Shown here: piece by piece, positions 57,910 to 61,971 of the stretch
Layout: each line of letters starts with the position of its first letter
How positions within the stretch are numbered: position 1 is the first letter of the stretch
Assembly: GCA_964553825.1 (NCBI GenBank)
Contig: CAZKLT010000002.1
Span: forward strand, 66,068-130,067
DNA: 64,000 bases
Source of the DNA: an uncultured Gammaproteobacteria bacterium
GTDB lineage: Bacteria; Patescibacteriota; Microgenomatia; UBA10105; UBA927
Reading direction: 5' to 3'
Translations under genes and position numbers: made by a program
The notes under the pieces: model-generated
The model's database searches: none
Seen by the model: the letters and a program-made list of their open reading frames with translations, nothing else
Told to the model about the DNA's origin: nothing

Positions 57910-60900
57910 ATGCCGGCAGATCCAGAAAGACTAAAAAAAGTCCTCGAAGCGTTGGCACCCAAAAAACCCATGGGCGATCCCGGCGGGCCAAAAGGTGCTA
58001 CTGAGGCAAAAGGAGCGACACCGTCAAAAAAGGTTGAAAAAAAACCAGAACGCCACCAACCAAACACAGAAGGACAGAAGGCTGCTTCGGATACTGTCGC
58101 AGTAGCGGAGGGTCCGCACGATGTCCCAAAAGATGTATCAATTCAGGATGAGTTCGTCAGAATCGAGCTTATTCGGGGAGAGCCGCTTGCCACTTCGGAG
58201 AAGATTGCCAAGCTCAGTGAACGGCATAAGCCAACAAGTCAGGCCCTTCAAGGCGGATTGAGAGCGCTTGAAAGCGTGGACTGGGACAATCCGTCAGCTG
58301 AACAGTGGAAACAAATCCAGGCGATCGTGAGCAAGATGCCCCGCGTGGGACAGCTTGATTCACCACGGGATCAGGAAATATTACGCGAGGCGCACCAATC
58401 CATTCTTTCACATTATTTTGATCACAAAGATGCCTATACATCACAGCAGATAGAGCTAGGCGCAGTAACAACCACTGTTCCATACGGAGACGCAGAGCGA
58501 TATCAGGCGGAACGGCAGGCAGTGGAGGCAGACGCAGAGCGACGGCTGCACCTGGATACTGTTGAGGACACGCGGCAATACATTAACGAGGTACTTTCTG
58601 AGGTTAGTGATGGGCCAGCGGCAGAGCTTTTGGCGCGTAAACCAATTCAATCGGAACAGGTCGCCCAATTTATGCAGGAGCAGTTTGCCCAGGGTCAGAC
58701 GTTTGACCAGGCGGCAAGGAACCTAATGGAAGAGTACATGAGCCCTAATCAGCCGTTTGCGGCACAGGACGGCTCTGAAATTCGACGGATAGCGGCCACC
58801 GTCGACATGGTTGCGCCTTCAGGAGAGCGGATATTGAGTATTGAGGGAGGGGCACCGACCAGGCGCACAGCGCGACGCCCTGCGACAGGCGGGGGCGGGC
58901 GGGAGATTACCGCATCCATGCTTAAAGGACTGAAAGGACCCAAAAAAGACATAGATGATTTCAGGAGAGAAGCAGAAGCATTTAACATTCGTGCGCGCGC
59001 AGGCGGCGCAGAAGCAGATGCACAAGTTGCATATTTTGCCAAAGCGATGGATGAAACGAGGTTCGTCATCCTCATCGATAAGAGTCCCGCACTCAAAGCG
59101 CATATGGAAACCCTCAAGGCGCAGGGTCGTGAATGGGTGAAGAAGCAGAATTTTTCCAAAGAAGTGGAGCGGGGATGGAGCAGTCTATACCTGTCATATG
59201 AAGAAATGAAACAATCATGGAGAAGTCCCGAGGCAATATCCAGCATGTGGCAGGATCGTGCGAATTCCGACGCCAAGCGCGGCGTGTACGAGAGCGAATG
59301 GCAGGACTCAAGCAAGCGGAATTATTCTCAGCTCATTCAGTACATTTCTAGCGCTGACTATCAGCGACATCGGATTGCCTACATTGAAAATCCGGAAAAT
59401 TGGCACGAAATTTCAGAATTAAGCGGCCAGAGAATTACGAGCTTGGCGGAGGCGAAAAATCATTCATGGTACCGGGAGGTGGATAACGCAGAAGAATATC
59501 AGGCCTGGCGGGACCGTATGGCAGATCGTATTCGTGCGCGTGGTGACTTAAACCGGCTTCAGATTGCCATCCAGACGGATGTGGAGATGGATAAGATCAA
59601 GGGGCTGTATGCCGATTTTGGAGATGCGGGATACCCCCTTATCTTAAATGAACGTAATGGCTTGAACCTTGCCGCCTTTGAGATACTCAAAGAGCGGGGC
59701 GCCAGTATTATTTATGACGAAAACGGAAATATCCGTGCGCTTACCGCAGGAAGTCTTATTCAGCTGGAGAAAGATGTGGTGAATCAAATGTGGGCACAGC
59801 GGGACCTCTATCGAGACCGGTTTAACGAGTGGGACGGAAGTATTGGTGCGGATGCTAACGGCGATGTCCTGAAAGACGCTCGCGGTAATGTGGTGAGGCG
59901 ATCGCTTGAGAAAGCGGATATTGAAGCTGCGGTTACTGAGGTATCGTTTCTTATCACCGCCACAGGACAGCGGGCCCAGATTTTTGGCAAGGCAGCAACC
60001 CCGCTTGAAATGAGGCATCAGACAGGCAATCCTATGGCATTCGGTGGTCAGCCTGCTGAGGGAAAGATTCTTTTTGCGATGTCACCGTTTAAGTGGCTTC
60101 TGGACCGATGGGCACTGAAAAGCGACTTTGCAGCGCTCACAATGCGAAACATGTTCACTGCTGAATCTATTCGGGCGGGTGTCGATACGCAGTGGCGAAC
60201 GCGCTTGGCTCATATTAGCCACGGTTCAGAGGAGTGGAACCGGTTGGTAAAAATGGCATTTAATATTAATGATTTAAACGATGCGGACGCTGTGAAAGGC
60301 GCATTTTCGACCCTTCGCTTCGAGCGGGGAGCCATGGGAAATACATTGAAAGACAAACTTAAGTTTGCAAGTAAACATTTTTTGTTGCGCACTAATCTCG
60401 AGGGTGCGATTCGAACTCCACCGGAAACGCTCGCGCAATTAACGAAAGACGATCTTTTGGAACAGATTCTGTATCGGGAAGGGAGACGGCTTCTGGATGC
60501 GCGTATTTCCGGTGCATATCACATTATCGATTCAGGCTGGCAGATCGGTACGCAGCGTGACGCGCTCAAAGACTTCGGCATCTATACGGACAGCAACGGA
60601 GTGCTTCTCCATGAGGTGGCTCGCTTGGATGTGGGAGCGTTGTTTGATACGTCTGCGGATCATCATAGCATTGATCACGCTACTGAACATTTGAAGCACC
60701 ACACCTTCAAACTCATGGGGAAGTTTGATCCGATTGCAAGCATTGATGCATTGGCAACCAAGATGCACGACAAGACCTTTGAGTGGTTTCGTGATAACGC
60801 AACACTTCTCAATGTGTTTAAGAACGCGGATATGGGGGAGCATACGATCCGGTACGACGCTGCCAATCCACAGGCCTTCGCGCGGGATACCATCAGGGCC

Positions 60901-61971
60901 GCTTCAATGCGCAGATCAATGATTGACACGGAGCTTGCCCTTACCCGCGTCAGGGATCCGGGAACCGGAAGAATGATCGAGACGCCGCAGGCACCGGTCG
61001 ATTACTCGAAATGGACAGGCAATCTTAATGATTTTTCACCGCAGGAGCGGGCGGCGATTCTGAAGATTAGCGCCGCCACCGGAGACCGGTCACTGACGCC
61101 TGAGGCCAACGCCAAGGCATATTTGGACGTCATGAAGGCAGCATCGGACTTTGCGCTCCGAGCGCCAATCATTGATGATCTCGCCAGTCCTATGTACGCT
61201 GCGTACTTTACCACGGTGAACAAGATCGACCCCCGTGTGAAATTTATTGATGGTATTAAGGATAATAATCCGGATCACCAGAATACCAGTCTTATGTGGT
61301 CCAATAGGATCAGCGCCATTCCCGGCGGTCACGGGGCCGGAGGTGGATTTGCGCGGTGGGCAGGAGACACGCAGAACTCGGTAAAGGGCCTGGGAGAGCA
61401 TCTCTTGGCGTTGCTTGAGGCGAAAGATACGAAAACGTTTATGATGCACTTTAAGCCGTTTGTCGATACTATTGCCTATAGTGGAGGTCAGGAGGGGGCA
61501 AAGGCGCCTGTCGGTCAAACGTTGTTTTACGGCTGGAGCCAGGCGGTTATGAAAGATATTGAATTTGACCTTGCAGGCATTGGGGACGCAACGACGATGG
61601 ATATTTCACCGGCACAGAGGGCGGGCGGACAGGGGATTCAACCATTAAGCCGCATTGACATTGATCATTTGAGCCACGATGTAGAAGCGGCGATAGGGGA
61701 GAAGTTCCATAATCGTATGCATAACTTTACGGCCGCGATGGAAAAGAAATATAGCATTGCAACGAATATAAGTGTCAGCACCCCGAACATAAAGATAGGG
61801 AGACTGAAGATTCGTTCGCGGCAGCTTTTTAAGGGTCGTATCCCGCATGTACGTTTATACAATCTTCATGCTTTTGCCCTCGTGGGAGGTGCGCTCTTGG
61901 CCATGGGTGCGTTTGGAGCTGCAAAGAAGGGTTGGGGCGATTCCTCAGGCGGGTCAAGCGAGCACCACTAA
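57910..61971 (+). CDS. Giant (1353 aa) hypothetical protein: Lys/Pro-rich N-terminus, predominantly helical charged body, C-terminal TM tail-anchor. T4SS-associated candidate (effector, surface or channel component).
   Basis: Single uninterrupted ORF. No signal peptide. C-terminal hydrophobic segment LHAFALVGGALLAMGAFGAAKKGW. No recognised catalytic motifs. It is embedded between nadD and the VirB6-like gene. Confidence 0.5.
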   Translation: MPADPERLKKVLEALAPKKPMGDPGGPKGATEAKGATPSKKVEKKPERHQPNTEGQKAASDTVAVAEGPHDVPKDVSIQDEFVRIELIRGEPLATSEKIAKLSERHKPTSQALQGGLRALESVDWDNPSAEQWKQIQAIVSKMPRVGQLDSPRDQEILREAHQSILSHYFDHKDAYTSQQIELGAVTTTVPYGDAERYQAERQAVEADAERRLHLDTVEDTRQYINEVLSEVSDGPAAELLARKPIQSEQVAQFMQEQFAQGQTFDQAARNLMEEYMSPNQPFAAQDGSEIRRIAATVDMVAPSGERILSIEGGAPTRRTARRPATGGGGREITASMLKGLKGPKKDIDDFRREAEAFNIRARAGGAEADAQVAYFAKAMDETRFVILIDKSPALKAHMETLKAQGREWVKKQNFSKEVERGWSSLYLSYEEMKQSWRSPEAISSMWQDRANSDAKRGVYESEWQDSSKRNYSQLIQYISSADYQRHRIAYIENPENWHEISELSGQRITSLAEAKNHSWYREVDNAEEYQAWRDRMADRIRARGDLNRLQIAIQTDVEMDKIKGLYADFGDAGYPLILNERNGLNLAAFEILKERGASIIYDENGNIRALTAGSLIQLEKDVVNQMWAQRDLYRDRFNEWDGSIGADANGDVLKDARGNVVRRSLEKADIEAAVTEVSFLITATGQRAQIFGKAATPLEMRHQTGNPMAFGGQPAEGKILFAMSPFKWLLDRWALKSDFAALTMRNMFTAESIRAGVDTQWRTRLAHISHGSEEWNRLVKMAFNINDLNDADAVKGAFSTLRFERGAMGNTLKDKLKFASKHFLLRTNLEGAIRTPPETLAQLTKDDLLEQILYREGRRLLDARISGAYHIIDSGWQIGTQRDALKDFGIYTDSNGVLLHEVARLDVGALFDTSADHHSIDHATEHLKHHTFKLMGKFDPIASIDALATKMHDKTFEWFRDNATLLNVFKNADMGEHTIRYDAANPQAFARDTIRAASMRRSMIDTELALTRVRDPGTGRMIETPQAPVDYSKWTGNLNDFSPQERAAILKISAATGDRSLTPEANAKAYLDVMKAASDFALRAPIIDDLASPMYAAYFTTVNKIDPRVKFIDGIKDNNPDHQNTSLMWSNRISAIPGGHGAGGGFARWAGDTQNSVKGLGEHLLALLEAKDTKTFMMHFKPFVDTIAYSGGQEGAKAPVGQTLFYGWSQAVMKDIEFDLAGIGDATTMDISPAQRAGGQGIQPLSRIDIDHLSHDVEAAIGEKFHNRMHNFTAAMEKKYSIATNISVSTPNIKIGRLKIRSRQLFKGRIPHVRLYNLHAFALVGGALLAMGAFGAAKKGWGDSSGGSSEHH

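Follow-up and report, generated by a model that had tools for sequence, protein, structure and literature searches.

What does a protein of 1353 amino acids do inside a type IV secretion system (T4SS) locus, anchored, as it appears, by a single hydrophobic helix at its C-terminus? This question is raised by the open reading frame (ORF) at positions 57910..61971, forward strand, of a 64,000-nucleotide stretch of contig CAZKLT010000002.1, which is the window referred to below. The ORF starts with ATG, translates unbroken and includes its stop codon within these coordinates; P0001 in the NCBI-derived data is an identical protein. Its product, called here the giant, is a real protein of a previously undescribed family, which is restricted to one Patescibacteria clade of ultra-small bacteria, the Gottesmanbacteria-like Microgenomatia. 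It is also a fixed, single-copy constituent of a chromosomal, origin-proximal, monoderm-type T4SS locus. As to its function, the answer that we tentatively favour, while holding it short of likely, is that the giant may be a dedicated, host-facing cargo of this T4SS, equipped with a tail anchor.

The association with the T4SS was assessed in five look-ups of giant homologues (19-59% identity) and by scanning metagenome contigs with a VirD4 profile, which yielded 65 loci. In 11 of them VirD4 is at least 65% identical and the sequence available downstream measures 4.5 kb or more, and all 11 carry a family member of 1064-1332 amino acids at the same position. Eight of these giants were retrieved by default hmmsearch, and three only with filters off (E 1e-11 to 1e-22) in combination with BLAST chains. 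Where VirD4 is at most 59% identical, in about 20 loci, neither a homologue of the giant nor any tail-anchored giant is present. Because all 11 close loci are positive and those with distant VirD4 are negative, the family is strictly linked to the T4SS and belongs to one clade. The five look-ups and the 11 metagenome loci agree in the co-localisation expected of a constituent of the Patescibacteria (MPF-FATA-like) T4SS, namely with virB4, prgI, trsD and VirB2-like pilin genes. In every informative locus the homologues stand beside the same T4SS genes, and unlinked homologues were not met.

The giant had been placed by the initial annotation inside a T4SS-like block, flanked by VirB6 and VirD4 genes. 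The block itself is confirmed, while VirD4 is not a direct neighbour, as nadD lies in between, and VirB6 can be named by position only. Upstream of the block, in the origin region, dnaA (44757-46259) and dnaN (46460-47566) occupy 44757..47566 on the forward strand. A divergent T4SS operon follows on the reverse strand (48602..55013), comprised of genes for an M23 peptidase (48602-50911), a CD1110-family VirB4 (50917-52842, E 8e-120), a protein resembling TrsD/TraC (52844-53503) and a PrgI/VirB3-like protein whose C-terminal domain is Ig-like (53505-55013). On the forward strand, and thus co-directional with the giant, lie the gene of the VirD4-like coupling ATPase (55102..57288; N-terminal DUF8128 with DUF87/TrwB_AAD_bind/TraG-D_C), whose product has no hydrophobic segment, and nadD for nicotinate-nucleotide adenylyltransferase (57292..57846), always found between the VirD4-like gene and the giant. 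Downstream, a convergent gene on the reverse strand (61995..63575) encodes a polytopic protein listed with 526 amino acids and seven hydrophobic segments, VirB6-like by position and topology. It adjoins the first gene for a VirB2-like T4SS_pilin (PF18895; 63526..63867, reverse strand), with which the pilin array starts. As the listed GTG start of the polytopic protein overlaps this pilin ORF, translation probably begins at the ATG of residue 23, giving about 504 amino acids, like its homologues. No Pfam hit was obtained for this neighbour, and since a profile of 13 such neighbouring sequences finds no relative in the PDB, its VirB6-like assignment is positional only.

The same order, M23, VirB4, TrsD-like and PrgI divergent from VirD4-like, nadD, (nadE) and giant, was observed in the related loci L001, L005, L007 and L008. 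L006 and L009, situated on short contigs, show partial synteny compatible with it. In the loci of relatives the giant is followed by a convergent polytopic protein, of 447-507 amino acids in the look-ups and of 460-580 amino acids with 8-10 transmembrane (TM) segments in the 11 metagenome loci, and then by the pilin array, which comprises 5-6 pilins in L001, L005 and L008. Published descriptions present the Patescibacteria T4SS as chromosomal and origin-proximal, with TrsD, PrgI and VirB4, arrays of VirB2-like pilins, no relaxase and a barely detectable VirB6 (PMC12102498, PMC10633639), and the arrangement in the window agrees with them (PMC12102498, PMC10633639).

Several other features of these loci were noted. 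The gene nadE (NAD synthase) directly follows nadD in several of them (listed at 956-1729 in L006 and at 9194-9931 in L007), so that the enzymes for the final two steps of NAD synthesis are encoded in the same direction as the T4SS coupling ATPase, in organisms of minimal metabolism. Distant homologues of the VirD4-like protein in L041, L061, L063 and L070 have a strong hydrophobic segment, unlike those of the clade studied here. The PrgI/VirB3-like protein is unusually long (~477-502 amino acids), and its C-terminal domain is of the CarboxypepD_reg (Ig-like) type. The T4SS operon is closed beside dnaN by a reverse-strand ORF (47563-48741) of 392 amino acids, which has a single TM segment at its N-terminus and matches no family. 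Its real start is probably at residue 54, which leaves about 339 amino acids, and its position and topology would make it a candidate for the VirB8-like component that is missing.

The giant had no match in Pfam, NCBIfam, PHROGs, PADLOC or the PDB sequences, and a word-index protein search returned only the giant itself and one 59%-identical relative. An exhaustive HMMER search, with a profile of residues 411-1353 as a query against 1.84 billion cluster representatives, disclosed 29 proteins at E <= 1e-3, nine of them at E <= 1e-30, and almost all 1000-1430 amino acids long. Pfam gave no hit for 24 full-length members, even at E up to 5, and the family profile of giants matched none of the solved structures. 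A search of the genome collection with a three-sequence alignment found one GTDB genome. The distant homologue P0005 is MBI5449632.1, a 'hypothetical protein' of Candidatus Gottesmanbacteria bacterium; this is the sole name used in databases, and the giant goes unmentioned in the published surveys of Patescibacteria T4SS that were consulted. This homologue and the arrangement of the locus are the grounds on which we infer that the window belongs to Patescibacteria (Microgenomatia). Full-length homologues that begin and end alike come from more than 25 independent assemblies, so that the giant is not the product of a frameshift or an assembly chimera and the uninterrupted 1353-residue ORF reported at the outset stands. 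As a separate observation, the GTDB species representative that carries the closest homologue in the genome collection (L004, CAYUKU010000001.1) has the same Patescibacteria-type T4SS locus, and given this locus its record title, 'uncultured Gammaproteobacteria bacterium', is probably wrong.

Members of the family share a recognizable layout. They have no hydrophobic segment at the N-terminus, which begins with a short helix followed by K/P/E-rich low-complexity sequence; in most members a short amphipathic stretch can be seen by eye ahead of it. The C-terminus consists of the motif P-x-(W/Y)-x-Y-R, a hydrophobic helix found in essentially all full-length members, and an AKKG...SG...GGGH-like tail of 6-30 amino acids. 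The helix is moderately hydrophobic, with a family mean Kyte-Doolittle (KD) value of 1.72 compared with 2.0-2.7 for TM segments of the neighbouring membrane proteins. Conservation is concentrated in residues ~420-1310, and D1107, R1109, S1131, R1149, D1153, K1175, D1216, S1233 and R1237 are invariant or nearly so in 24 divergent members.

In contrast to its constant position, the sequence of the giant is anything but constant. Amino acid identities between the window and L001, L005, L007 and L008, in this order, are 93, 78, 76 and 85% for VirB4 and 95, 78, 70 and 88% for VirD4. They are 79, 65, 64 and 75% for NadD, 79, 43 and 53% for the VirB6-like protein (no value for L007), and 64, 48, 45 and 57% for the PrgI-like protein, down to 56, 26, 23 and 22% for the giant. 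Its N-terminal 410 residues can be aligned to L001 only among these four. Over 105 locus pairs, a VirD4 identity of 75-85% goes with a median identity of 22% in the giant and 41% in the VirB6-like protein. Nonsynonymous divergence (dN) from L001 is 0.415 in the giant (0.82 in residues 1-410), 0.042-0.048 in VirD4 and VirB4, and ~0.14 in NadD and the VirB6-like protein. The giant is thus the fastest-evolving gene of the locus, with dN about 10 times that of the T4SS ATPases. At the nucleotide level, identity to L001 is ~80% in VirB4 and VirD4, 36-45% across 57883-59082, which covers the N-terminal third of the giant, 56-67% in its body, 68-72% at 61100-61700 and 72-79% in the VirB6-like gene.

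The variation is also patchy. Between L016 and L030 the giants are 69% identical while VirD4 is only 73% identical, and dN of the giant is about equal to that of VirD4; discrete, internally constrained 'types' would accommodate such a pattern better than a protein that is simply unconstrained. The C-terminal region of the PrgI-like protein makes up a second variable spot in the locus: at 53914-54758, its presumably extracytoplasmic part, nucleotide identity to the closest relative is 52-58%, compared with ~80% in the flanks. In general, the predicted cytoplasmic ATPases are conserved and the predicted extracytoplasmic parts (the Ig-like C-terminus of the PrgI-like protein, the M23 protein) are variable. 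Judged by this trend, the giant behaves like the most exposed part of the locus.

In its architecture the giant is built of a short N-terminal helix, a disordered K/P-rich segment, a hypervariable helical region, a body of ~950 amino acids, a moderately hydrophobic helix and a tail of 6-30 amino acids in the family. All segments are encoded on the forward strand, and boundaries in the N-terminal part follow the AlphaFold2 model with its per-residue confidence (predicted local distance difference test, pLDDT). The short helix (57922..57954, residues 5-15) has pLDDT ~70. It is followed by a K/P/G-rich disordered segment (57958..58107, residues 17-66; pLDDT <50; 17% K, 15% P), in which the K/P-rich string described in the initial annotation was located at residues 17-49 (nt 57958-58056). 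Residues 70-180 (58117..58449) form a small, confidently predicted helical domain (pLDDT 82-98), conserved solely in the closest relatives P0002 and P0003. Next come a variable helical region (58477..58809, residues 190-300; pLDDT 55-80) and a G/R-rich disordered linker (58810..58908, residues 301-333; pLDDT <50; 20% G, 17% R).

The all-alpha body that defines the family (58912..61839, residues 335-1310) is the part matched by all HMMER hits. Of the 'long charged helical body' proposed previously, the helical character is borne out by the AlphaFold model and the charge is not, as the net charge of residues 336-1310 is -3, which is not unusual. The most conserved polar block (61216..61377, residues 1103-1156) reads D1107-x-R1109 ... 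S1131 ... G1140-x-G ... R1149-xxx-D1153. The His-rich patch DHHSIDHATEHLKHH (60658..60702, residues 917-931) is not a feature of the family; it is unconserved even in P0002 and corresponds family-wide to an indel-rich loop. Downstream of the body and preceded by P-x-(W/Y)-x-Y-R, the helix LHAFALVGGALLAMGAFGA (61864..61920, residues 1319-1337; mean KD 1.73) is the only hydrophobic segment in a Kyte-Doolittle scan, which detected neither an N-terminal hydrophobic stretch nor a signal peptide, as had been stated before. The sequence ends in a short G/S-rich tail with a terminal His, AKKGWGDSSGGSSEHH (61921..61968, residues 1338-1353). By hydropathy prediction, the giant groups with tail-anchored proteins, having its sole TM segment within the last ~65 residues and no signal peptide. 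Residues K and R flanking the helix average 3.5 on the N side and 2.2 in the tail, and both flanks have K/R near the helix. A motif scan for LPXTG (LP.[TSA]G), HUH, Walker A and HExxH was negative, internal repeats are absent, and in accord with the earlier description there is no recognizable enzymatic motif or family hit.

The AlphaFold2 model of residues 411-1353, based on the 29-sequence alignment, has a mean pLDDT of 83.8 and a predicted template modelling score (pTM) of 0.85. It is compact and nearly all-alpha, with the longest helices of about 30 residues and a small, low-confidence beta element just before the terminal helix. In a model of the N-terminal 440 residues, helices following the linker 301-333 run into the body. 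Foldseek found nothing significant for the body in the PDB (best E 0.08) or in BFVD (best E 0.0065), or for the N-terminus in the PDB (best E 0.6), and TM-scores of all best hits are at most 0.15. Sub-threshold hits (karyopherins, 14-3-3, tape-measure and internal virion proteins) were dismissed as noise from generic helical proteins. The remote homology check by Foldseek and family profile therefore returned no match, and a compact, globular fold without known structural counterpart is predicted. The option of a surface filament, raised initially, is disfavoured, and a coiled-coil filament was rejected, as it disagrees with helices of ~30 residues at most, with the compact fold and with the absence of internal repeats.

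The 63-bp gap between nadD and the giant contains a sigma-70-like promoter, TTGCGA-17 nt-TACAAT, detected in a consensus scan at 57855..57883 on the forward strand. The pattern TTGnnn-N17-TAnAAT lies 35-90 nt 5' of the giant in 15 of 19 related loci, including some in which the giant is only ~22% identical. The chance rate of this loose pattern is estimated at well under one tenth of 120-nt stretches, and for this reason the giant probably has its own conserved promoter. An element CTTGCG/CTTGTG ... (G)ATACAAT was seen 5' of the giant in the window and in L001, L005, L008, L011, L014, L017, L030 and L038.

How could such a protein act? If it is cargo, the giant would be synthesised in the cytoplasm, with no Sec signal, and after translation its tail anchor would park it in the membrane of the epibiont. 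The adjacent VirD4-like coupling ATPase would then engage it and pass it through the VirB4/VirB6-like channel. The conserved, membrane-proximal C-terminal part would either stay with the machine or enter the membrane of the partner cell, and the hypervariable N-terminal part would meet host-specific targets. We favour this scheme because conservation in the locus follows the predicted cytoplasmic placement of the products, with the giant as the most variable gene, and because the protein has no Sec signal, sits with the coupling ATPase, ends in a helix of only moderate hydrophobicity and has its own promoter. The secreted effector suggested in the initial annotation gains indirect support from the extreme, patchy divergence and is one candidate reading. 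Transmembrane effectors secreted by T4SS, tail-anchored ones included, are documented, and so is a two-step route via an inner-membrane intermediate, described for transmembrane effectors of Legionella, which the scheme would parallel (PMC12981334, PMC11602083, PMC6110835). A more specific version, which we consider unlikely, is that the giant is the dedicated substrate of the essential Patescibacteria T4SS, passed through the VirD4/VirB4/VirB6-like channel into the membrane of the host bacterium, with the N-terminal part setting the host range and types exchanged between lineages.

Several points weigh against the cargo scheme. A single copy that never changes its place from locus to locus would be expected of a machine subunit more readily than of an effector, and the charges flanking the terminal helix (3.5 vs 2.2) accord with a tail-anchored protein of the classical kind, whose bulk remains cytoplasmic in the epibiont. 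Profile scans of the giant and its family revealed no recognizable enzymatic or host-targeting domain. The ratio of nonsynonymous to synonymous rates (omega) is not estimable because synonymous sites are saturated in every pair (proportion of synonymous differences, pS, ~0.77-0.8), and alpha-helical scaffold proteins can evolve fast too. Moreover, the organisms that supplied the documented precedents (PMC12981334, PMC11602083, PMC6110835) are diderm pathogens infecting eukaryotes, and none is a monoderm epibiont of bacteria.

The same copy number and the same flanking charges, which favour an N-in, C-out topology with a short tail, would suit a cytoplasmic, membrane-tethered platform of the T4SS, a helical scaffold under the channel that docks the TM-less VirD4-like protein and/or VirB4/TrsD together with substrates. 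Such a platform, the main rival of the cargo scheme, which we rate as rather unlikely, would be a functional counterpart of the ARM-repeat extensions of the 'extended' VirB6 of Saccharibacteria, comparable to tail-anchored TssL/DotU-type proteins, and through this analogy the channel extension mentioned in the initial annotation remains a live rival. It is in line with the conservation of the membrane-proximal C-terminal part, the most conserved of the giant, and with the VirD4-like protein of the clade, which is devoid of hydrophobic segments and would require a partner in the membrane. The VirB6-like protein of these loci is also short (460-580 amino acids) compared with SEML1_0011 and SEML1_0013 of Southlakia, which reach ~1000-1090 amino acids with ARM-repeat C-terminal domains, and bacterial tail-anchored proteins with cytoplasmic bulk do exist (PMC6794478). 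However, a partner of proteins that are 88-95% identical should co-vary with them, and in those genome pairs the giant reaches an identity of 22-56%, with a type-like divergence incongruent with VirD4. A conserved promoter of its own distinguishes it from the operon of the machine, and neither sequence nor Foldseek comparison shows similarity to VirB6, to ARM/HEAT proteins or to any T4SS component. Membership in VirB6/TrbL was rejected, as one hydrophobic segment contrasts with a core of at least five TM segments and the 24 members gave no PF04610-type signature or Pfam hit.

The remaining explanations are less probable still. A surface adhesin or host-recognition protein, anchored in the epibiont's own membrane with 1300 residues of bulk outside and replacing PrgB-type adhesins, would explain why the hypervariable region is membrane-distal and the conserved one proximal, as in adhesins and receptor-binding proteins. 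Variable pilin arrays adjoin the giant, and no PrgB-like adhesin has been found in Patescibacteria (PMC12102498). We nevertheless regard it as improbable: there is no signal peptide, LPXTG or other sorting signal, the only known export route for 1300 residues N-terminal to a single C-terminal TM segment is the T4SS itself, the flanking charges point the opposite way, and the compact all-alpha fold has no Ig-like or beta-rich repeats. Sorting of the LPXTG/PrgB or PEP-CTERM type was also rejected on the lack of a signal peptide, of LP.[TSA]G and of any NCBIfam sorting-signal hit. Equally small is the chance that the giant is a neighbour unrelated to the T4SS, with an envelope, division or NAD-linked function, kept in place by inherited gene order alone. 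Its own promoter, nadD (in some loci nadE) directly upstream, and the dnaA, dnaN, sigma factor and mevalonate genes that flank the locus would be compatible with this. Yet in every locus the giant lies between the VirD4-like and the VirB6-like/pilin genes, its distribution among taxa matches that of one VirD4 subclade, and housekeeping proteins do not outpace their neighbours 10-fold in divergence. Most remote is the idea, largely refuted, that the giant is a relaxase that has diverged strongly, or another DNA-processing protein, coupled to VirD4. Relaxase genes often stand beside the coupling-protein gene, a His-rich patch is present, and a recognizable relaxase is missing from most Patescibacteria T4SS loci (PMC12102498). 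Against it, that patch is unconserved and no HUH motif exists, no relaxase, primase or helicase family was hit by the 24 members, no solved relaxase was matched by sequence or fold, and a C-terminal membrane anchor is not a relaxase feature. Membership among conjugative (MOB) relaxases was rejected on the same patch and motif and on the lack of Pfam and NCBIfam relaxase hits, which upholds the initial opinion that a relaxase assignment is unsupported. An ADP-ribosyltransferase was considered in view of the nadD/nadE neighbours and the conserved R/S/D residues, and abandoned since the model shows the conserved block as helical.

Some features outside the T4SS block deserve a record. Past the pilin array, L001 (18056-24236), L005 (17517-21760) and L008 (17985-24083) carry genes for a sigma-70 factor and a Yip1 protein together with a mevalonate module of archaeal style, comprised of HMG-CoA reductase, HMG-CoA synthase, thiolase, DUF35/OB_ChsH2_C and GHMP kinases, which is unusual in bacteria. 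In the window, GC content falls to 0.36 at 28000-30000 (window mean ~0.49) over a reverse-strand ORF of 510 amino acids (28104-29636) without a Pfam hit. This dip lies inside a ~40-kb glycan/cell-envelope cluster with three Wzy_C O-antigen-ligase-like proteins, GT1/GT2/GT4 glycosyltransferases, a DegT aminotransferase and Glyphos_transf, and the region may be a horizontally acquired cassette. The cluster also contains a plant-type 'reversibly glycosylated polypeptide' (PF03214) at 40925-41965. Beside dnaA, a reverse-strand gene (41962-44841) encodes a protein of 959 amino acids with a PQQ/BamB-like beta-propeller, DUF5060 and a weak apiosidase-like domain. An Rfam scan of the 64-kb window gave no tRNA, rRNA or other family at gathering score.

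The giant adds one extra, invariably present protein to the T4SS locus of this clade, left unannotated in published surveys. It is a candidate for cargo, for a determinant of host specificity or for a lineage-specific part of the machine; if the inner-membrane platform were true, the giant would illustrate the way in which a monoderm T4SS recruits a coupling ATPase devoid of TM segments. The Patescibacteria T4SS lacks a relaxase and, in the single species examined, is required for epibiotic growth (PMC10633639, PMC12102498, PMC12857230).

Among known systems, the VirB6-like proteins SEML1_0011 and SEML1_0013 of Southlakia epibionticum are essential and have C-terminal ARM-repeat domains (PMC10633639 Tables S1/S2). 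Like the giant, they attach a large, helical, hydrophilic mass to the membrane and are encoded in a Patescibacteria T4SS locus beside pilin arrays, and the giant could serve the role of their extension on a separate polypeptide. Compared by description, they are polytopic, with VirB6/TrbL-like cores, in contrast to the single C-terminal helix of the giant, and HMMER with the giant profile retrieved giants only, with no homology to them detected. TssL of the type VI secretion system and DotU/IcmH from the type IVB system are conserved proteins of ~200-260 amino acids and known fold, with cytoplasmic bulk on one C-terminal TM segment. The giant would share this layout if it were a platform, and it shares the encoding in a secretion locus, while being five times larger and hypervariable, with a fold that has no match. 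PrgB resembles the giant in its length of more than 1000 amino acids, its variability, its monoderm-type (MPF-FATA-like) T4SS locus and its C-terminal hydrophobic segment, and differs in having a signal peptide at the N-terminus, the LPXTG motif for sortase and Ig-like/adhesin domains rich in beta structure, all missing in the giant. CagA is the single dedicated substrate of the Helicobacter Cag T4SS, an island-encoded, fast-evolving and mostly helical protein of ~1200 amino acids with a unique fold. Unlike the giant, it has no TM helix and acts in eukaryotic cells, and it shows no Foldseek similarity to the giant in the PDB.

A further likeness is offered by the Dot/Icm effectors of Legionella that carry a transmembrane domain, which also have no Sec signal and a moderately hydrophobic C-terminal helix in the last 35 residues. 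These effectors are many per genome, scattered and derived from diderm pathogens, without kinship to the giant in sequence or fold. The giant, on the other hand, is present in one copy at a fixed position in the locus of a monoderm epibiont, and it would be secreted if the cargo scheme holds. With T4SS transmembrane effectors in general it has in common that it is encoded with the T4SS, next to the coupling ATPase, and that it diverges rapidly.

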